DNA from: an uncultured bacterium
GTDB lineage: Bacteria; Patescibacteriota; Minisyncoccia; UBA6257; GWB1-50-10
Length of the DNA stretch: 64,000 nt
Direction of reading: 5' to 3'
Assembly (NCBI GenBank): GCA_963713955.1
Contig: OY970216.1
Location: 637,483 to 701,482, forward strand
Positions within the stretch are counted from its first letter, which is position 1, and each line of letters begins with the position of its first letter. Made by a program: the position numbers and the translations under genes. The notes beneath the pieces are model-generated. The model was given only the letters and a program-made list of their open reading frames with translations. It had not been told where the DNA came from and searched no databases. Below, piece by piece: positions 955 through 63,248 of this stretch.

Positions 955-2475
955 CTATACGAAACCCGGGAAAAAATCGCTTCTCACGTTCTTCTTCTCG
1001 ATGTCCATGCTCTCCAAAACTTCCTTGGAACCCTCGACCATGGAATGGGTCCCCGAAACGTAGAACAACCGCTCTTGGTAATCGGGGATTGCTTTTTCGA
1101 TCATTCGCTCGTCAATGCGCCCCCGTTCGCCGTCCCATCCCGCCGGCGCTTCTCCCGTCAGAGTGTAAACCGCTTTCACGCCCACCCTCCTCGCTTCGTC
1201 AAAAATGTCCCGGTACATGATTTCGTCGGCCGTCCGGTTGGAATATAAAAGAACGATGTCCCTCCGTTCGTTTCGATCTAAAAGATATTTCGCCATGCTG
1301 CGAAACGGCGTGATGCCGATCCCGCCCGCGATGAAAACGAGTTTCTTCCTCCTGTCTTTCGGCAAGACAAAATCTCCCGAGAGCTGTGAAGCGGTTATTT
1401 TTTCTCCTTCCTTGAGATACGCAAGTGCTTTCTTGAAAGAGCTGGGATTTTGATAAAACCGTACGCCCATCCGTATTCTCCCTTCGGTCGGCGAAGAAGC
1501 AATCGTGAAATATCTCCGGTTCCCCCTCGAATCCGGCCGCTTGTGCGGGAGCGTCCACTCCAAGTATTGCCCCGGCTTGAACCTCAGTTTCTCGTCAGAC
1601 CGGAAAACGAAATCGTAGAGGCCCGGCCCAATTCGTATTCGCTCCTCAAGCCTCAAGATGAGTTTCTTCTTGGAGCTCGCGAGGTACGAGAAAACGTTGC
1701 CGAGAAGAAGCGCGAGCTCCGGCGTGAAATAAAACGATCCCACGTGGACCTGCGGCGCGAAGAAAAAGCCGACGAGCGCACCGTAGACCATCCGGAGATT
1801 TTCGGTGGGCGGCGTGGTTAAGGGTTCCGTGAGCATGACGAACGCGAAGAAGAAAAGGGGCGAATCGAGAAAAGCCTGACTCGCAAGCCGCACGACGTCC
1901 TGGCCCCCAAAAAATCCGAAGGAGAACGTCGCGATGAGCGAAACTGCAAAGAAACTTATGACCAGATCGGATCGCAAAAGCTTCCTTGTCATCAAGAGCC
2001 CGCCGACGAGAACAAAAGGAAGCAGGGAAGCGGTTCCGACCCACCAGCTCGCCGATTGATTGATGGTGAGAGCGGTCAGGGCAACGCCGAACGCGGCAGG
2101 GTTGAAGACATGTTTCTTCTTGATGGCTAAGATGTATTTCGAAGCCATGGCCCAAACGGACGCCCAAACGGCGAGGGGAAAATACGAAGACGCACTCGAC
2201 GGAAAAAAGGGCGTTATGATGAGCGTGAGAATGAGCGCGGTGATGTAAACGGACTCAACGTTTGTCTGAGCCTCGAAGACGCGCGAGAAAAGGAGGTTCG
2301 TGAGCCAGCATACCGCCGTTATGAAAAATCCAGAGAACAGGAGCCCGCCCCACGAATAGGGAAGTATGTGGACGGCCGAAAAAACGACGGCGACGGCGAA
2401 AAGGCCGAGAAGGTAATAGAGCACCAGCCGGTACATTGTTATCCTGTTCAAAAAATTATCGATAAGATCAATCAT
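955..2475 (-). CDS. Fusion: RnfD/NqrB-like polytopic membrane domain + ferredoxin-NADP reductase-like FAD/NAD(P)-binding domain
   Basis: N-terminal ~250 aa are multi-TM with HVFNPAAFG and MLTEPLTTPP, matching RnfD FNPAM and LTDPVTASTT in order. C-terminal RRYFTIASSP (RxY[ST] FAD motif) and FIAGGIGITP (NAD(P) glycine loop), as in FNR/NqrF-type reductases. Confidence 0.7.
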   Translation of the reverse strand: MIDLIDNFLNRITMYRLVLYYLLGLFAVAVVFSAVHILPYSWGGLLFSGFFITAVCWLTNLLFSRVFEAQTNVESVYITALILTLIITPFFPSSASSYFPLAVWASVWAMASKYILAIKKKHVFNPAAFGVALTALTINQSASWWVGTASLLPFVLVGGLLMTRKLLRSDLVISFFAVSLIATFSFGFFGGQDVVRLASQAFLDSPLFFFAFVMLTEPLTTPPTENLRMVYGALVGFFFAPQVHVGSFYFTPELALLLGNVFSYLASSKKKLILRLEERIRIGPGLYDFVFRSDEKLRFKPGQYLEWTLPHKRPDSRGNRRYFTIASSPTEGRIRMGVRFYQNPSSFKKALAYLKEGEKITASQLSGDFVLPKDRRKKLVFIAGGIGITPFRSMAKYLLDRNERRDIVLLYSNRTADEIMYRDIFDEARRVGVKAVYTLTGEAPAGWDGERGRIDERMIEKAIPDYQERLFYVSGTHSMVEGSKEVLESMDIEKKNVRSDFFPGFV

Positions 2476-2635
2476 GGTTTTGTTCGGCTCATCCAGCCGA
2501 CTTACCGTGCGTCAACACGCGTCGGTCCGCCCCAGCCGGCGGACCGCGCTCGACCTCGTCCTCGCTCTTCTCGCTTCGCTCGAAACCATGCCCGCTCGGA
2601 CTCCGCACGGTTGACTTGACGATAAGTCGGCTGGA
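2476..2635 (-). promoter_or_regulatory. Structured leader / intercistronic element: 21-nt arms of a long inverted repeat enclosing a GC-rich hairpin, ending 15 nt before the start codon of the fusion gene
   Basis: atccagccgacttaccgtgcg (2486-2506) pairs with cgcacgg..taagtcggctggat (2603-2635); internal ggtccgcc..ggcggacc hairpin. Confidence 0.35.
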
Positions 2636-3386: not shown

Positions 3387-3857
3387 TTAACTCGCTTTCG
3401 AGAGAGCGGAAGCTAAAGATTCCTGGAACGCCTGGCTCGTTTGCGTCGCTCCCGAAACGATGTCCACGTTCGAGCTTTGCGCTTGGATTGCTTCCCGAGT
3501 CAAAATGGGCATTGCCTTATTGCTCACGGAGCGGGAGTAAGATCGGTCGTTCGGATACTGGAGGAACGTGACGTCCGCGATTTTCCCCGACTTGATCGAA
3601 ACTTGCACCTCAACGTTCCCGAAAAAAGCGTTCGCGACATCGCCGATATACGCCCCATCTTTGTAGGCACCCGTCATACCGCCCATCGGCATAGAAGGAT
3701 TATTGCTTGATTGCTGCTGTGGCGGTGCTGACGCAGCCGGCGCCGGTGACACCAATGGAGACGTACTGGTCGAGCCGCTCCGGCCGCCGAGATGCTGTGC
3801 AATGACGTAAAAAACGAAAACGGCGACCACGGCCGAGGATAAGACTACTTTCTTCAT
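3387..3857 (-). CDS. Membrane-anchored FMN-binding domain protein (NqrC/RnfG-type FMN_bind) with SGAT flavinylation motif
   Basis: N-terminal TM helix, low-complexity Pro/Ser/Gln linker, then ..NVDIVSGATQTSQAF.. ([S/T]GAT[S/T] flavin-attachment motif). Confidence 0.65.
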   Translation of the reverse strand: MKKVVLSSAVVAVFVFYVIAQHLGGRSGSTSTSPLVSPAPAASAPPQQQSSNNPSMPMGGMTGAYKDGAYIGDVANAFFGNVEVQVSIKSGKIADVTFLQYPNDRSYSRSVSNKAMPILTREAIQAQSSNVDIVSGATQTSQAFQESLASALSKAS

Positions 3858-3899: not shown

Positions 3900-3930
3900 T
3901 ACAAGAAAAGAGGCCTTTAAAGGGCCTCCT
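3900..3930 (-). terminator. Rho-independent terminator after the Cys-rich gene, followed by a TATAAT box for the FMN-binding gene
   Basis: Minus-strand RNA GAGGCCCUUUAAAGGCCUC + UUUUCUUGUAUAAUG. Confidence 0.5.
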
Positions 3931-3955: not shown

Positions 3956-4309
3956 CTATTGGCCGGTCGTGGTCGATCCCTGGGCACCGCTGTAATTCCC
4001 GTTCCAGCCGTACATCATGGGAACAGGGTATCTCGAACCGCCGCCACCCCGCATCATATAACGCACGGGCATTTCACGATACCCCCCGCCCCAAAACGAG
4101 AACATGGCGCCGAGTTTGAATCCGGCGCAGAAAACGATGGCGAGGACGATGATGCCGATGAGCCACCTGAGCCAGCGCCTCCGGCAGCCCCCGTGCATGA
4201 AGCAATGACACGAACCGCAGGCGCAACCGCCGCACGCTTCGCACTTGCCTCCGCTGCACATCGGACACTTGCATCCCTCGGGATGATCATTTTTTTGCTG
4301 CATCTCCAT
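3956..4309 (-). CDS. Small Cys-rich membrane protein (CxxC-rich N-terminus, one TM helix, Gly/Met/Tyr-rich C-terminus)
   Basis: 117 aa: GCKCPMCSGGKCEACGGCACGSCHCFMHGGC, then WLRWLIGIIVLAIVFCAGF TM, then GGGYREMPVRYMMRGGGGSRYPVPMMYGWNGNYSG. First gene of a same-strand tight cluster. The overlapping + ORF 3959..4462 is rejected. Confidence 0.55.
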   Translation of the reverse strand: MEMQQKNDHPEGCKCPMCSGGKCEACGGCACGSCHCFMHGGCRRRWLRWLIGIIVLAIVFCAGFKLGAMFSFWGGGYREMPVRYMMRGGGGSRYPVPMMYGWNGNYSGAQGSTTTGQ

Positions 4310-4371: not shown

Positions 4372-6801
4372 TCAAGACTTTTTCTTCGTCCCCTTTGTCC
4401 CGCCAGAAACGGAATGTCCGCCGAATTGGTTTCGGAGCGCGGAAAGAATGCGTCCCATATAACTCGGCGATTTTTTAGATCGCATGCGGAACTTGAAAGC
4501 ATCCTCAATGGCCGGCAACTTCATGTCCCGTTTGCGCGCCGTCAGGATCGTCCACTCGCCTTCTCCGGTCGCGACAACCGACCCCGAAATTCCTTTCAAA
4601 TCTTCACCGTGCGCGCGGAAGGCGTTCTCGAGCCACCCGACGAGCCTCGATTCGATGACGCTCCCCCGGTTGTAAACCGCCGCGACTTCTTTAAGATTCA
4701 ATTTGAAAGGAGATTTTTTCATGAGCGCGAAACCCTCCGCGAGCGATTGCATCATGCCGTACTCGATTCCGTTGTGCACCATTTTGACGAAATGCCCCGC
4801 GCCCGCTTCCCCGAAACGGGCATAGCCGCCGGGCACCGAGAGATCCGCGAAGAGTTTTCCAAGAGACTCAAACGTCTTCGGTTCCCCGCCTATCATGAGG
4901 GAACCGCCATGGCGCGCGCCGGAAGGCCCGCCCGAAAAACCGACGTCCATAAATCGTATGCCTCTTTTAGCGAGGAGTTTCGACCGACGGACCGTATCCT
5001 CGAAAAACGAGTTGCCGGCGTCGATGACGACGTCTCCTCTATCTAAAAACTTCGTCAAACCGCCTTTCCCGAAAAGAGCGTCATCCACTCCCTTTCCCGC
5101 CGTAATCATGAGCCACACAACCCTCGGGCGCTTGAGTTTCGATATGAGTTCCTCGATCGAGAAGGCCGTCTCGAAACCCTCCTCGCCGATCTCGTCCACG
5201 GGGCCCTGCGAGCGATTCGCCGCGACGACGCGCCATCCCTTGTCGCGAAGCTGGCGTGCGACGTTCCGACCCATCTTTCCCAGGCCGAAAATTCCTATCT
5301 CTCCCGCCGGGAGGCCGTTGAGAGAAACGCCGTTATCCAAAGCTTCCGCCTCGGCGGAAATCGAAGAGTTGTCCGGCCGGTAGTGCTTCAGAGGGACTGT
5401 GTTCTTCCGCCAGCCGGCGATTATGGAATCGATGAAGCGCCACATGGCGGATATTTCGGCGCTTGAGACGAAAAGCATCTGATTATCCGATATGCAATCG
5501 AGGAGGAGCTTTTCGTACTCTTCCGTATATTGCGTCCTCCGGCCAGTTTTCCGGAGATCGAAATCAAACGTTCGCTCTTCGAGCTCCATCGTGAGTCCCG
5601 GCTTCTTCGACCAAAAATGAATGGTAATACCCTCGGCGGGATCCTGTTTGAAAACAACGGAATTCCGGTAATGCTTGCCGGGCGGACAAAGGCAGGGCCG
5701 CGGATGCCTGAAAGTCACTTCTATTTCCGTTATCTCGCCGCGGGAGCCGGGATTCATGAGCCGTTTACCGGCTTCCATAATGAACGTCACGCCGCGCCAC
5801 CGGGGATGCGCAAGGGAAAATCTTGCCCTGAAGTAGGTCTCGGTATCGGAATCGGGACGCACGCCCTTCACGGAGCGGTACCCTTCGTACTGAGCCCGGA
5901 ATGTCTGTCGCTTGACTTCTTTAAAAGACAGAGGAACGAGCGTTTGGAGGATCGACGCGCGATTTTTCCTCACGGCGTCGGCTTCCAGGCTTTCCGGCTG
6001 ATCCATCGTGACCAAAGCCACCATCTGGAGAAGGTGGTTCTGGCCGACGTCCCGGAGCGCCCCCACCGCGTCGTAAAAGGGACCGCGGTCTTCCACCCCG
6101 ATGTTCTCGAATTCGCGGACGCGCACGCTCTCGATGAGTTCGTTCCCCCAATTGTCCTCGAAAAGATTGTTGAAGAACCGGAATGCCATCACGTTCTGGA
6201 ACGTTTCTTTGGCCAAGTAATGGTCAATCCGGTAAATCTGATCTTCGCTGAAAAGCTTGGCGAGTTCCGCGTCGAGTGCTTTTGCGCTCTTCTCGTCGCT
6301 GCCGAACGGTTTTTCCACGATTACCCTTGTCCATCCTTCTTCGGGTCCGCCGCACGGTTCGCTCAAGCCCGATGCCGAAATATTTTTCAGTATCTCCGGA
6401 TAAAAGCGCGGCGGCACCGCGAGGTACAAGAGTTTGTTCGAACACATACCCCAGCGACCGTCGACGGCTTTGAGCGCCTCGGAAAGCCTCGCGTAGTCGG
6501 CTTCGTTCTCAAACGTCCCCCGTTCGTAGGAGTAAAGCGAGAGGAATTTTTCAATGCGTTTCTTTTCGCGATTCACGTTTACATGTTTTTTGAGTATCTC
6601 CCTCACCCGTTCCCGGAAATCGCTGTCCGTTAGATCACGTCTCGCGAAACCGACGACGCGAAACATGCGCGGCAAAGAATCCTTCGCGAAAAGGTTATAG
6701 AGGGCCGGCACTATCTTCTTCGTCATGAGATCGCCGGTCGCTCCAATGATGACGACAATGGTCGGTATTCGAGGTTTTACGTCCTTCTTTTTTGCAGACA
6801 T
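4372..6801 (-). CDS. zwf: Bifunctional fusion: glucose-6-phosphate 1-dehydrogenase (Zwf) + short-form 6-phosphogluconate dehydrogenase (Gnd/YqeC-type)
   Basis: 809 aa. N-terminal part has IIGATGDLMTKKIVPALYNLF and RIDHYLAKE (G6PD signatures). C-terminal ~300 aa has IGIFGLGKMGRNVA, DAGNSFFEDT, GEAGAGHFVKMVHNGIEYGMMQ (6PGDH signatures). Confidence 0.85.
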   Translation of the reverse strand: MSAKKKDVKPRIPTIVVIIGATGDLMTKKIVPALYNLFAKDSLPRMFRVVGFARRDLTDSDFRERVREILKKHVNVNREKKRIEKFLSLYSYERGTFENEADYARLSEALKAVDGRWGMCSNKLLYLAVPPRFYPEILKNISASGLSEPCGGPEEGWTRVIVEKPFGSDEKSAKALDAELAKLFSEDQIYRIDHYLAKETFQNVMAFRFFNNLFEDNWGNELIESVRVREFENIGVEDRGPFYDAVGALRDVGQNHLLQMVALVTMDQPESLEADAVRKNRASILQTLVPLSFKEVKRQTFRAQYEGYRSVKGVRPDSDTETYFRARFSLAHPRWRGVTFIMEAGKRLMNPGSRGEITEIEVTFRHPRPCLCPPGKHYRNSVVFKQDPAEGITIHFWSKKPGLTMELEERTFDFDLRKTGRRTQYTEEYEKLLLDCISDNQMLFVSSAEISAMWRFIDSIIAGWRKNTVPLKHYRPDNSSISAEAEALDNGVSLNGLPAGEIGIFGLGKMGRNVARQLRDKGWRVVAANRSQGPVDEIGEEGFETAFSIEELISKLKRPRVVWLMITAGKGVDDALFGKGGLTKFLDRGDVVIDAGNSFFEDTVRRSKLLAKRGIRFMDVGFSGGPSGARHGGSLMIGGEPKTFESLGKLFADLSVPGGYARFGEAGAGHFVKMVHNGIEYGMMQSLAEGFALMKKSPFKLNLKEVAAVYNRGSVIESRLVGWLENAFRAHGEDLKGISGSVVATGEGEWTILTARKRDMKLPAIEDAFKFRMRSKKSPSYMGRILSALRNQFGGHSVSGGTKGTKKKS

Positions 6802-52961: not shown

Positions 52962-54149
52962 TTACTTTTCTGCGTTGTACATCGCTTGAATCTCGGCTGC
53001 GGAAAGTGGACGGTTGTAGATACGAACATCATCGATCAAGCCGTTGAAATAACCGTTACCGGCACCAATGACTGGATTTCCAGAAATCGAGGTTATGCTC
53101 CCGGGAACGTATGTCTTGGAACTCACCATAACGCCGTTTATGTAAAGCTTTGTCACTCCCGAGATGGCATCGCCGGTACCCGCCGCATAATACCATGTAC
53201 CATAAGAGGGAATTACATAACGCGGAGTTGCATCCTCTCTAGTACTATTCACGTTAATCTCTCCGACTATTTGTCCGTTGCCATCTATCCAGACACCATT
53301 CATGTATCCCCAACCTACAACTTGCGTACTTATCTGGCTGTTTGGCCTAACCCATGCCGAAAAAGAAACTTGGTTCGAGGTGGTGATGAGCGAATTCAGG
53401 GCAGCACTCAAATTCACGGAAGCGTTGCTACTCGTCCCGTTGAAACTTAAGCACCCTCCAACCTTACAGCCTGAAGTCCACATGGGGCTGTTCACTAATG
53501 TCCCATTATTCCCATTCCCACTCATATCACTCGCATTCCCATCCAGCGGCCAGTACCCCACGAGCCCACTTGCATTGAATAAGGGAGAAAGATTGAGGTT
53601 GGAACCATAGGCAATGACTCCAGGAATCATCTGGATCATAGGATTTGTCTCAATCTGGGCTTTGTACTTCTGTGACTCAGGGATAGCGGTAAGCTCAAAG
53701 GAGCCTCCTGGCGTATAGGTATAGTAGAGTCCTGAGGACGTAGTATTCACGGGATCAATCGGGAGCTTGGATAATGGGGATCCTGATGAAATGAGGGTGA
53801 GATTGACGGGAATCCAGCCAGAACCATCTGTTCTTGTGGAAGAAGCAGCTGGAACACAGGCATAGGAGTAACCTCCTGGAAGGGCAGGGAGCCCCAGGTT
53901 GCCACAGGTACTTGAGGAGTCAGGGATAGAGACATAGGTAGTGGAGGCATTTCCTAAGGGTTGGTTCCATTGATCGGTCTGGAAGAGGGATAAGGCACTA
54001 TTCAGAGCTGAGAGATCAGAGAGTCTCGTGGAATCCCTTCCTTGAGCGAGAAGCTGGGAAGGGTTCAAGACCAAGACGACGGCGGTTGCGAGGACCGCAA
54101 GGATCGCAATCACGACCAGGAGCTCGATCAGGGTGAAGGATTCCCTCAT
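52962..54149 (-). CDS. Prepilin::LamG paralog 5
   Basis: MRES|FTLIELLVVIAILAVLA..; C-terminal GLIDDVRIYNRPLSAAEIQAMYNAEK. Confidence 0.8.
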   Translation of the reverse strand: MRESFTLIELLVVIAILAVLATAVVLVLNPSQLLAQGRDSTRLSDLSALNSALSLFQTDQWNQPLGNASTTYVSIPDSSSTCGNLGLPALPGGYSYACVPAASSTRTDGSGWIPVNLTLISSGSPLSKLPIDPVNTTSSGLYYTYTPGGSFELTAIPESQKYKAQIETNPMIQMIPGVIAYGSNLNLSPLFNASGLVGYWPLDGNASDMSGNGNNGTLVNSPMWTSGCKVGGCLSFNGTSSNASVNLSAALNSLITTSNQVSFSAWVRPNSQISTQVVGWGYMNGVWIDGNGQIVGEINVNSTREDATPRYVIPSYGTWYYAAGTGDAISGVTKLYINGVMVSSKTYVPGSITSISGNPVIGAGNGYFNGLIDDVRIYNRPLSAAEIQAMYNAEK

Positions 54150-59544: not shown

Positions 59545-61125
59545 TTATTTTTGAGGTTCTTCTTTGACTTCGCCACCTTGACCCCCTTCTTTCACGGTTA
59601 CGGTATCAGAAAGAGTAGGACCTGTCAATTGAATCCTTAATTCCTCAAGCTCTTCGGCGGGTATCTTCCGCACCCCCGTGCCGGCTGGTATCAACCTTCC
59701 AATGATCACGTTTTCTTTCAAGCCTCTCAAGTTATCCACTTTGCCGGAGACAGAGGCTTCAACTAAAACTCTCGCCGTTTCCTGGAAAGAGGCTGCGGAA
59801 AGGAAACTCTCCGTCCCAAGAGCGATTCTCGTTATGCCGAAAATTTTCTGCACTGCCCGCGGGGGTCTCTTTTTCGTTTTCTTCATCGCCCGCACGGCGC
59901 CGATGAACCGGGGTTTGCCGACTATTTCCCCCATCATGAACTCGGAATCGCCCGGATCCTTGACCACGACTTTGGAAAGCATTTGCTTCATCATTATTTC
60001 GACGTGCTTGTCGTTGATGACCGAACCCTGGGAAACATATATTTTCTGCACTTCGTTTATGACGTAATGGATCAAAGCATCGAGTCCCCGATAAGCCAGA
60101 ATCTCCCGTAAATCAAGCGGACCCTCATATATCTGATCTCCTTTTTTGACTGCATCCCCGACTTTGACCCTGATCCCGGCCCGCGGAGGAACCAGATATT
60201 CGTAAACGTTCGCATCTTTGGAGGAAGATTTCCTGCCTCTCCTCTTTGGTTTTGACGGTTTATTTTCCGAAACGGATATGACGGTCGAGAGCCCTCGCTC
60301 CGCTATGTCGGTTACCACCCCTTCCGCCCTCACGAGCGCAGCTTTGCCTTTCGGGACTCTCGCTTCAAAGACCTCTTCTATCCTCGGCAAGCCGTGGGTG
60401 ATGTCCGCACCCGCGATGCCGCCGATGTGGAACGTCCGGAGTGTAAGTTGGGTCCCCGGCTCGCCGATGGATTGGGCGGCTATCACACCGACCGCCTCAC
60501 CGATCTCAACTTTTTTGTTTCTGCCCAGATCCACGCCATAGCACGTAGCACAAACCCCGGAAAGAGATTTGCAGGTTATGGGCGATCTTACTTTGACCAA
60601 TTCCAGCTTGGAGTTGTGTATCTCCTTGGCCGCCTCCCTCGTAATCGACTCATTTGCTTTGACGACGACGCGCCGATCAATCCTTATATCTTCCAGCGCC
60701 GTCCTCGAAAAAATCCTCTCGGCAAAAGAATAACCGTACTCGTCGCCCTCGCTCCTCAAGATCTCGATGCCGCCCTTAGAGCCGCAATCATCCTCTCTCA
60801 CGAAAACATCCTGAGCAACGTCGACCAGCCTCCTCGTGAGATAGCCAGCCGCGGCGGTCTTCAAAGCCGTGTCAGTGGAGCCCTTTCTGGCTCCATGGGC
60901 ACTTATGAAATATTCAAGGACACTCAATCCTTCTTTGTACGAAGACTTAGCCGGCAACTCGATGGTTTCCCCGCGGACGTCTTGTATCAAACCTTTCATC
61001 CCGATCATCTGGATCATCTGCGACCAGCCGCCGCGGGATTTCGAATCCAGGATGAGATACAGAGGATTGTCTTCTTTCAAGGTAGCCGGCAAAACTTTGG
61101 CTATCCTCTCTCTGCATCGGTCCAA
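59545..61125 (-). CDS. rpoC: RNA polymerase beta' subunit, C-terminal segment (frame shifted relative to the upstream segment)
   Basis: ..GLSVLEYFISAHGARKGSTDTALKTAAAGYLTRRLVDVAQD.. The track ORF starts at a TTG inside the overlap. Confidence 0.85.
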   Translation of the reverse strand: MDRCRERIAKVLPATLKEDNPLYLILDSKSRGGWSQMIQMIGMKGLIQDVRGETIELPAKSSYKEGLSVLEYFISAHGARKGSTDTALKTAAAGYLTRRLVDVAQDVFVREDDCGSKGGIEILRSEGDEYGYSFAERIFSRTALEDIRIDRRVVVKANESITREAAKEIHNSKLELVKVRSPITCKSLSGVCATCYGVDLGRNKKVEIGEAVGVIAAQSIGEPGTQLTLRTFHIGGIAGADITHGLPRIEEVFEARVPKGKAALVRAEGVVTDIAERGLSTVISVSENKPSKPKRRGRKSSSKDANVYEYLVPPRAGIRVKVGDAVKKGDQIYEGPLDLREILAYRGLDALIHYVINEVQKIYVSQGSVINDKHVEIMMKQMLSKVVVKDPGDSEFMMGEIVGKPRFIGAVRAMKKTKKRPPRAVQKIFGITRIALGTESFLSAASFQETARVLVEASVSGKVDNLRGLKENVIIGRLIPAGTGVRKIPAEELEELRIQLTGPTLSDTVTVKEGGQGGEVKEEPQK

Positions 61126-63248
61126 ATGGTTATGATCCTGCTCTTCCGTTCCTCGAAGGTCAAAAGCCCTTCGTTGTACTGTTCTTCAACCACGCCAACT
61201 TTTTCCTCAGCTTCACTCAAGATCGTCTTTTTCTCTTCCGGCAAAATGGTATCAAGCATCCCCCACGTGACCGATGAAAGCGTCGAGTATTGGAAGCCGA
61301 GATCTTTTATCCTGTCGACGTATAACCTGCTTTCGTCGACGCTGTAGCGTTCTATGATCTTGCCGACGAGGCCTTTTAATCCCCCCTTATCGAGAACGGT
61401 ATTCACGAAACCGAAATCCGGAGGCAAGATAGCGTTGAAAATCAAGCGGCCATAGGATGTCTCGACAGGCTCGTTTTCCACCCGAATTTTAACCAGCGCG
61501 TTGATATCAACGATGCTGTTTTCATAAGCAAGTTCCAGCTCTCTGAAATCTGCGAAGATTTTCCCCTCTCCCTTGGCTCCCCTTTTTACGCGGGTCAGGA
61601 AGTAAATGCCCAAAATGACGTCGTTCGTCGGCGTCACAATGGGACCTCCATCGGCCGGCTTCAGGAGATTGTGGCCGGCATCCATGAGTTCCTTGGCTTC
61701 ATACTGAGCTTCAGCGGTCAAAGGCAAATGGACAGCCATTTGATCGCCGTCGAAATCGGCGTTGAACGCGGCGCAAACGAGGGGCGGAATCCTAATGGCC
61801 AAATCTTCTATGAGAAGCGGCTTGAAAGCTTGAATCCCCAGACGATGGAGTGTCGGCGCTCTGTTTAAGAGCACTCTCCTCGATTGAATCACCTCTTCGA
61901 GGATCGCCCACACCTCCGGAGGCCCCTGCTCGATGAGACGGTTCGCCTGTTTTATGTTAAACGCCAGACCCCGTTCTATTATCTTATTGATAATGAAGGG
62001 GCGGAAGAGTTCGATGGCCATGTTTTTGGGAAGACCGCACTCGTTGAGTTTCAGTTCGGGGCCGACCACGATGACCGATCTTCCAGAGTAGTCAACACGC
62101 TTGCCCAAGAGATTTTGGCGGAACCTGCCCTGTTTGCCCTTCAGCATGTCTGCCAGCGATTTGAGAGGCCTTCGCCGCGAAGACAAAAGCTGGCTTCCCA
62201 GCCTCGCCGTGTTGTCTATGAGAGCGTCGACCGCTTCCTGAAGCATCCTCTTTTCATTGACGATAATGACTTCGGGCGATTTGAGCTCCATGAGCTTTTT
62301 CAACCTGTTGTTCCTGTTGATGACGCGTCCATAGAGATCGTTCAAATCCGCCGTGGCGTAAAAACCGCCGTCCAAGACCACCATGGGCCGGAGTTCTGGC
62401 GGCAATACCGGCAAGACCGTCATCACCATCCATTCAGGCCTCACGTTCGCTTTCATCATCGAGCGCGCGAGTTTCAGGCGGAGTAGTATTTTTTTCTGTT
62501 TCAAGACATCGCCGGCTTCTTGAAGTTCCTTCTGGAGTTCTCTCGACAAAACCTTGAGATCCACCGTCTCCAAAATTTTCCGCACGGCTTCGGCTCCCTG
62601 CCCCGCTTCGAACACGTCGCCGAATTTATCCACCAGATTGTAATACTCATCCTGACTCAAGATGAGGCCGACTTTCAAAAGTGAAATGATTTCCTTCACT
62701 TCACTTTGCTTTTTCTTGAGTTCTTCCGTCTTAAAACCTTCGCCCTTCAGCTCCTTGAATTCCTTGGTAAGGCTGTCAAGAGCCCGCTTCTTGTTTTCCT
62801 CGTTGACTCTCGTCACGATGTACGCCGCGTAGTAAATCACCTTCTCAAGTTTCGGCTCGGAAATGTTCAAAACAAGGCTGAGCCGCGAGGGAACCGTTTT
62901 CAAAAACCATATGTGAGTCGTAGGCGTTGCGAGCTTGATGTGTCCCATTCGTTCCCGCCGAACCGACGAGTGGGTTACCTCGACTCCGCACTTCTCACAG
63001 ACGATGCCCTTGAACTTCACTTTCTTGTACTTGCCGCAGTAACATTCATAATCCCTCGTCGGCCCGAAGATTCTCTCCGAGAACAAACCGTCTTTCTCCG
63101 GACGTTGCGTCCGGTAGTTCAGGGTTTCTGGTTTGGTAACCTCTCCGTACACCGTGGAACCATCCGACCCCCGGTGAGCTGACCACTCGAGTATTCCCTC
63201 CGGCGAAGCCAGCTTGATGCCTATTCTTTTGATGTCATCTCTCGTCAT
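61101..63248 (-). CDS. rpoC: RNA polymerase beta' subunit, N-terminal segment (ends at a TAG created by a +1 frame shift in a GAGAGAG run)
   Basis: Zn-binding CYCGKYKKVKFKGIVCEKCGVEV, NADFDGDQMAVHLP catalytic motif; ends ..IWTDAERG* where homologs continue ..DR[VS]KAMM.. Confidence 0.85.
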   Translation of the reverse strand: MTRDDIKRIGIKLASPEGILEWSAHRGSDGSTVYGEVTKPETLNYRTQRPEKDGLFSERIFGPTRDYECYCGKYKKVKFKGIVCEKCGVEVTHSSVRRERMGHIKLATPTTHIWFLKTVPSRLSLVLNISEPKLEKVIYYAAYIVTRVNEENKKRALDSLTKEFKELKGEGFKTEELKKKQSEVKEIISLLKVGLILSQDEYYNLVDKFGDVFEAGQGAEAVRKILETVDLKVLSRELQKELQEAGDVLKQKKILLRLKLARSMMKANVRPEWMVMTVLPVLPPELRPMVVLDGGFYATADLNDLYGRVINRNNRLKKLMELKSPEVIIVNEKRMLQEAVDALIDNTARLGSQLLSSRRRPLKSLADMLKGKQGRFRQNLLGKRVDYSGRSVIVVGPELKLNECGLPKNMAIELFRPFIINKIIERGLAFNIKQANRLIEQGPPEVWAILEEVIQSRRVLLNRAPTLHRLGIQAFKPLLIEDLAIRIPPLVCAAFNADFDGDQMAVHLPLTAEAQYEAKELMDAGHNLLKPADGGPIVTPTNDVILGIYFLTRVKRGAKGEGKIFADFRELELAYENSIVDINALVKIRVENEPVETSYGRLIFNAILPPDFGFVNTVLDKGGLKGLVGKIIERYSVDESRLYVDRIKDLGFQYSTLSSVTWGMLDTILPEEKKTILSEAEEKVGVVEEQYNEGLLTFEERKSRIITIWTDAERG

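Follow-up and report, generated by a model that had tools for sequence, protein, structure and literature searches.

The window analysed here is a 64,000-nt stretch of contig OY970216.1 (positions 637,483 to 701,482; assembly GCA_963713955.1) from an uncultured bacterium of the Patescibacteriota, and one of its genes encodes a 506-residue protein in which an RnfD/NqrB-like membrane domain is continuous with an FNR-like reductase. We consider it probable (roughly 70%), by analogy with published systems, that this fusion is the transmembrane subunit of a three-gene NQR/RNF-like electron-transfer module, which would carry electrons outward from cytoplasmic NAD(P)H to a flavin mononucleotide (FMN) outside the membrane. 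Judged by its genes, the locus is an ordinary example of the NQR/RNF-like systems, a known class that is common in the Candidate Phyla Radiation (CPR).

An earlier, sequence-only reading of this DNA had proposed the pairing of an RnfD/NqrB-like domain with an FNR-like reductase in one polypeptide, and Pfam domains, profile alignment and structure prediction now agree on it. The four motifs on which that proposal leaned (FNPA, LTEPLTTPP, RRYFTIASSP and GGIGITP) all lie within a single uninterrupted open reading frame (ORF; Table 1), and E217, P218, T220, P222 and P223 of the second, which aligns with LTDPVTAST of RnfD, are invariant in our family alignment. Pfam NQR2_RnfD_RnfE (PF03116) matches residues 147-264 with 30.2 bits against a gathering score of 27.7, and NCBIfam returns only partial, sub-threshold matches, to FNR-type reductases, NqrF and RnfD; by sequence, the membrane domain resembles RnfD in its C-terminal half only. 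A profile built from four RnfDs, namely Escherichia coli RsxD and three solved structures, nevertheless aligns to residues 10-263 (hhalign probability 95%, E 3.9e-8, 238 columns). An AlphaFold2 model of the fusion, built from 50 homologues, is confident (predicted local distance difference test 87.5, predicted template modelling score 0.80), and the best structural matches to its modelled membrane domain are RnfD and NqrB, not an unrelated transporter family. The membrane fold and the core motifs of a canonical RnfD/NqrB are thus both found in the fusion.

The reductase half is equally recognisable. NAD_binding_1 (PF00175) covers residues 381-483 with 68.9 bits, FAD_binding_6 covers residues 276-361 slightly below threshold, and PDB sequence matches of the NAD(P)H domain include cytochrome b5 reductase and NqrF; the combination that marks the FNR/cytochrome b5 reductase family, a barrel for flavin adenine dinucleotide (FAD) with RxY[ST] and an NAD(P)H domain with GGxGxxP, is present. 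The linker between the two halves is near-invariant across the family (Y264, S267, K269, K271, L274, L276). The whole protein contains one cysteine, which is not conserved, and its membrane domain contains only two conserved histidines, so that a path through flavins alone is the economical assumption, and neither iron-sulfur nor bis-haem chemistry is likely. Because residues before Met14 (D6, L9, N10 and T13) are conserved in the family, we favour the ATG at position 2475 over the start of the shorter public call of 493 residues. The window also holds the stand-alone FNR-like paralogue that the earlier reading had pointed out, a protein with no membrane domain that is 35% identical to residues 265-505 of the fusion (E 1e-36).

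What the membrane half lacks is the covalent flavin site. The RnfD flavinylation segment reads D-G-[ILMV]-[ST]-x-A-T-P-L, with D181, A186 and T187 (E. coli numbering) invariant in the four RnfD sequences, and it is part of the loop that follows the FNPA helix, ~100 residues before LTDP. We take T187 to be the ApbE target residue of RsxD/RnfD, and the number is said to go back to work by Backiel et al. in 2008. In the hhalign comparison, FNPAAFGVALTALTINQSASWW of the fusion is paired with RsxD, RsxD 143-219 is then skipped, and pairing resumes at VGTASLLPFVLVGGLLMTRK of the fusion. The deleted segment of ~75 residues includes T187, within DGISQATPLD, and has no counterpart in the fusion, and no insertion occurs at the deletion point in any of the 22 sequences of the family alignment. 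The motif D..[ST].A[ST] was not found anywhere in the 506 residues. On these alignments, the entire loop is deleted, and with it the flavinylation site, throughout the family; the FMN bound covalently to the Thr of a D-G-x-[ST]-x-A-T loop, which characterises canonical RnfD/NqrB, has no place in the fusion.

The sequence-only reading had been right that the site is absent, but it had placed the expected site wrongly, beside LTDP. E. coli RsxD does carry LLSGATMLGAFFILTDP just before LTDP; other RnfDs have SGGL or AGGL there, so the SGAT of RsxD at this point is incidental. We also considered the SAS at residues 141-143 of the fusion as a cryptic ApbE site and rejected it, as it aligns with QMTSW of RnfD and stands without the D and [ST]G context; position 143 varies among S, T and N across the family.

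Upstream of the fusion, on the same strand, lie a gene for an FMN_bind protein and then, after a gap of 4 nt, apbE. The FMN_bind protein begins with MKK and a transmembrane anchor, followed by a linker rich in Ser, Pro, Ala and Gln, and it does carry the SGAT site that had been attributed to it, as DIVSGAT. These features (a positive N-terminus, a transmembrane helix and a linker of extracellular type) predict an N-in/C-out topology with the domain outside. The cassette ApbE, by comparison, starts directly with the mature fold (MKETRILMGMPVTVEVV). Among 81 related loci, 74 have an FMN_bind gene and 69 an ApbE gene, on the same strand, upstream and usually abutting the fusion; a strict flavinylation motif is found in 50 of the 74 FMN_bind relatives, and an N-terminal segment with KD17 hydropathy of at least 1.8, judged by hydropathy only, in 65 of them. 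None of the 69 cassette ApbEs has a signal peptide, a lipobox or an N-terminal hydrophobic extension, as assessed by hydropathy. The transmembrane anchor of FMN_bind is conserved in sequence across phyla in the related loci L003-L081 (L-numbers denote loci carrying homologues, used for comparison with the window), with the pattern K-K-x-x-L-S-x-F-V-I-x-x-F-x-x-Y-A in the N-terminal 30 residues. Such conservation suggests that the anchor specifically contacts the RnfD-like domain within the membrane.

No further conserved partner gene emerged when the other ORFs within 5.5 kb were clustered over 88 loci, and no conserved terminal reductase lies beside the cassette there; regulators and ABC-type genes are only sporadic. 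Homologues of RsxA, B, C, E and G were not found in the 64-kb window (phmmer with E. coli queries), and genes for RnfA/E, RnfB, RnfC or NqrA, D, E, F, with which a canonical RnfD/NqrB subunit is co-encoded, are not among the recurrent neighbours in the 88 loci. Since FMN_bind and ApbE are conserved and no other neighbour is, the cassette is a self-contained three-gene unit.

This arrangement has been described before. The NQR/RNF-like flavinylation-associated system was defined as a fusion of PF03116 and PF00175 (Méheust et al., 2021, eLife, PMC8238504), and the same system was taken up by Huang et al. (2024, mSystems, PMC11334425), who already reported that the Thr flavinylated in NqrB/RnfD is not conserved in it. 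The locus in the window has PF03116 N-terminal to PF00175 in one protein, both ApbE and FMN_bind directly upstream (where either one within five genes is asked for), and, in place of the lost membrane-subunit Thr, whose loop is deleted, a site on an NqrC/RnfG-like partner (DIVSGAT). It shares with the published systems its domain architecture, the ApbE and FMN_bind cluster, the phyla (CPR, Chloroflexota, Actinobacteria) and the lost Thr; there is no essential difference, and what is added here is a 160-nt hairpin element that separates apbE from the fusion. Two observations go beyond these papers, namely that the ApbEs are leaderless in 69 of 69 cases and that the hairpin, flanked by inverted repeats, occurs in either orientation.

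The fusion is also far from rare, and "unusual", as it had been called, does not describe it: its architecture has been published as class-defining (PMC8238504, PMC11334425). In a word-indexed search, homologues made up at least 7,998 clusters at 90% identity, the best 120 of which are all ~500 residues long with PF00175, most of them with PF03116 as well, and an exhaustive search in which the membrane domain was the only query gave 1,512 clusters at 50% identity, mostly of ~500 residues. In a scan of one genome per species, full-length collinear homologues were found in at least 596 GTDB species genomes, chiefly of Patescibacteria, Chloroflexota and Actinomycetota, as against the 127 reported in 2021 (PMC8238504). 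The survey of public CPR genomes for which the earlier reading had called finds the architecture commonly: of the best 80 of these at least 596 loci, 44 are, by their record titles, CPR/Patescibacteria, 19 Chloroflexota and 3 Actinomycetota, with 4 under other labels and 10 unclassified. The cultured Ktedonobacteria Dictyobacter aurantiacus and Ktedonospora formicarum carry proteins with 53% full-length identity to the fusion, and the complex model of Huang et al. (2024; PMC11334425) is of Ktedonobacter racemifer, of the same class.

Comparison with better-known enzymes helps to place the fusion. Relative to RnfD/NqrB (PDB 8ahx_D, 7zc6_D, 7xk3_B), it has no covalent FMN site, the loop being deleted, and in contrast to the subunits of Rnf and Na+-NQR it stands without RnfA/B/C/E or NqrA/D/E/F partners and has gained a C-terminal FNR module; the direct contact with an RnfG-like subunit is predicted by the published model of the fusion system. 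Unlike NqrF, it lacks an N-terminal 2Fe-2S ferredoxin domain, and its FNR module is tethered to the membrane domain. With the NOX, MsrQ-like and PepSY-like reductases it has in common a cytoplasmic NAD(P)H-oxidising FNR module joined to a transmembrane conduit, often in clusters with ApbE or FMN_bind (PMC8238504). The conduits of those proteins are bis-haem six-helix domains, however, whereas that of the fusion has the RnfD fold, lacks a set of haem ligands and presumably works with flavins only.

Following Méheust et al. (2021) and Huang et al. (2024), we envisage that cytoplasmic NAD(P)H would reduce the FAD of the FNR module, that electrons would then cross the membrane through one or more putative non-covalent flavin sites retained in the RnfD/NqrB-like domain, and that they would reach the FMN that ApbE is predicted to attach covalently to the external FMN_bind protein. 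In Na+-NQR, electrons pass from the FMN of NqrC to that of NqrB and on to riboflavin (PMC12052999); the membrane leg of the module may be likened to the FMN-to-riboflavin leg of NqrB, run outward. The published AlphaFold-multimer model docks FMN_bind on the extracytoplasmic face beside the vacated FMN pocket (PMC11334425), and the tethered FMN may swing into the pocket emptied by the loop deletion. Electrons would leave for an extracytoplasmic acceptor encoded outside the module's genes, perhaps Fe(III), O2 or other oxidants. The module would then correspond to the RnfC-to-RnfD-to-RnfG half of Rnf, with the fused FNR domain in place of RnfC, and its proposed one-way flow would differ from the U-shaped electron path of Rnf and Na+-NQR.

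Several points weigh against this scheme. The ApbE is leaderless and its substrate is predicted to lie outside, while the leaderless ApbEs that have been characterised modify cytoplasmic proteins (PMC12052999), so that either the topology assumed in the published model or the moment at which it has flavinylation occur still calls for an explanation; the two papers on the system do not discuss the mismatch (PMC8238504, PMC11334425). The evidence on the electron donor is divided, as an NADH-cytochrome b5 reductase is the top PDB match by sequence and a gene for an NADPH-producing G6PD-6PGD lies near the cassette in the window and in its closest relatives. Finally, we found no experimental characterisation of any family member in the literature, so that what we say of direction, donor, acceptor and cofactor content is inference throughout.

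Other explanations have to be set against outward transfer. That the fusion is an artefact of a frameshift or mis-assembly, or that its membrane part is of ferric-reductase/NOX or transporter type, has a negligible chance of being true, even though the PF03116 match covers only residues 147-264 of the membrane domain and bis-haem ferric-reductase domains, too, occur joined to FNR modules, in NOX and MsrQ-like proteins: collinear homologues in hundreds of genomes, together with the conserved linker, rule out an artificial join of two genes, and the nearest folds are RnfD and NqrB. We think it unlikely that the module instead faces the cytoplasm as a miniature NQR, with FMN_bind flavinylated and working inside and electrons passing from FAD to FMN, to an NqrB-like flavin and on to a membrane acceptor such as a quinone, much like the final leg of Na+-NQR, and not to an external acceptor. 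FNR modules often pass electrons to an FMN domain, as this scheme has it, but to our knowledge CPR bacteria generally lack quinone biosynthesis. The leaderless ApbEs would fit this orientation, as would the fact that NqrB hands electrons via riboflavin to ubiquinone (PMC12052999); the N-terminus, helix and Ser/Pro-rich linker of FMN_bind, however, predict that the domain is outside, where the published model also puts it (PMC11334425).

A variant that accommodates the leaderless ApbE, improbable to us as well, is that FMN_bind is flavinylated in the cytoplasm and its domain is then either exported by some route or active inside. If inside, the three genes would encode a membrane NAD(P)H dehydrogenase that uses flavins only and may be ion-motive, and many CPR would have no other machine of respiratory type; the expression of the module might, in this lineage, be switchable by an invertible hairpin. 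Rather doubtful, too, is a minimal respiratory pump in which outward transfer is coupled to translocation of Na+ or H+ by the RnfD/NqrB-like domain: evidence that RnfD/NqrB alone moves ions is wanting, and RnfA/E (NqrD/E) are absent from the window and from the conserved neighbours. Outward transfer to an FMN_bind protein on the extracytoplasmic face remains the reading that we prefer.

The hairpin element between apbE and the fusion is, as far as the relatives indicate, lineage-specific, as most of them have no spacer at this point and the genes abut. It folds with a minimum free energy of -85.1 kcal/mol (z -5.3). The element in the window is in sense orientation and occupies the same position as copies in four other contigs, in which both orientations are found (Table 1). 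L086 and L090 are mutually closest (80% protein identity) and carry it in opposite orientations, as do the window and L001 (74% identity). The element must therefore have inverted at least twice. The stems differ in sequence between genomes and keep their complementarity. The element has no Rfam match and no second copy in the window, the spacer shows no convincing promoter or terminator consensus, and a metagenome scan with the element core GAGCRAGCGCGAATTC gave 120 chance matches, none of which contained the element by nhmmer. From these sequence features, it may be an inverton or an insert resembling a miniature inverted-repeat transposable element. The L089 contig breaks inside the inner palindrome, which is the usual behaviour of de Bruijn assemblers at palindromes and is evidence neither for nor against switching.

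Table 1. Positions of the features discussed, in nucleotides of the window unless a related locus is named (aa, residues of the encoded protein).
Feature	Residues	Position	Strand or orientation	Remarks
RnfD/NqrB-like + FNR-like fusion gene	506 aa	955..2475	-	single uninterrupted ORF; ATG start; stop codon 955-957
N-terminal membrane domain, RnfD/NqrB fold	aa1-268	1672..2475	-	~10 helices and re-entrant segments
FNPA motif	aa124-127	2095-2106	-	motif position in fusion protein
Loop deletion site	aa141-145 (SASWW)	2038..2055	-	SASWW (= RsxD QMTSW) runs straight into VGT; hhalign
LTEPLTTPP motif	aa215-223	1807-1833	-	RnfD LTDPVTAST equivalent; alignment to RnfD
FNR-type FAD-binding beta-barrel	~aa270-372	1360..1668	-	RRYFT at aa320-324
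RRYFTIASSP motif	aa320-329	1489-1518	-	motif position in fusion protein
NAD(P)H-binding Rossmann-type domain	aa378-506	958..1344	-	C-terminal DFFPGF; NAD_binding_1 68.9 bits
GGIGITP motif	aa384-390	1306-1326	-	motif position in fusion protein
Intergenic hairpin element, 160 nt		2476..2635	-	between apbE and fusion; flanked by 15-bp inverted repeats
ApbE flavin transferase	248 aa	2636..3382	-	PF02424 147 bits; no signal peptide or lipobox
Membrane-anchored FMN_bind protein	156 aa	3387..3857	-	NqrC/RnfG-like; predicted flavinylation substrate
DIVSGAT of FMN_bind protein	aa132-138	3444-3464	-
Stand-alone FNR-like paralogue	241 aa	51459..52184	+	PF00175 + PF00970; no membrane domain
Hairpin element homologue		L001 7807-7962	antisense
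Hairpin element homologue		L086 4704-5000	sense
Hairpin element homologue		L090 1-117	antisense
Hairpin element homologue		L089 1-73	sense

Around the cassette, a gene for an enzyme dependent on pyridoxal phosphate begins 9 nt past the stop codon of the fusion. On the other side, at 3956-4309 (minus strand), lies a gene for a 117-residue protein with a Cys-rich N-terminus (CKCPMCSGGKCEACGGCACGSCHC), one transmembrane helix and a Gly/Met-rich tail, which has no Pfam or NCBIfam match; in none of the 81 related loci (L001-L081) was a homologue found next to the cassette. The gene has a terminator-like hairpin of its own (3910-3928), and after this, ahead of FMN_bind, comes a TATAAT box. Further out, at 4372-6801 (minus strand), an 809-residue fusion joins G6PD_N and G6PD_C to a 6PGD-type module (NAD_binding_2 and a partial 6PGD). 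In L001 and L083-L088, too, the cassette has a G6PD or G6PD-6PGD gene nearby, which is not the case in more distant loci.

Elsewhere in the window, RNA polymerase beta' is encoded in two ORFs on the minus strand with a 25-nt overlap (59545-61125 and 61101-63248), one product holding Rpb1 domains 1-3 (715 aa) and the other domains 4-5 (526 aa), which could be a natural split of rpoC or a frameshift. Between 22000 and 30000, G+C content is 43-46%, as against 50-56% elsewhere in the window, and this stretch may have been horizontally acquired. A 395-residue pilin-like protein (52962-54149, minus strand) has a prepilin N-terminal methylation motif (FTLIELLVVIAILAVLA) and carries a C-terminal Laminin_G_3/concanavalin-like lectin domain.

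As the class is already catalogued, the value of this locus is that of a clean, typical example, and it adds no new category. The survey around it does sharpen the picture in that the flavinylation loop is deleted as a whole, the three genes form a self-contained module with no conserved acceptor gene, and ApbE is uniformly leaderless, the last being a discrepancy that any account of the system must explain. CPR/Patescibacteria lack conventional respiratory chains, and a compact conduit from NAD(P)H to the outside would be a major route of redox balance for them, perhaps relevant also to their interaction with hosts or minerals. If the proposed scheme is true, fermentative CPR cells would gain a means of disposing of reducing equivalents outside the cell.
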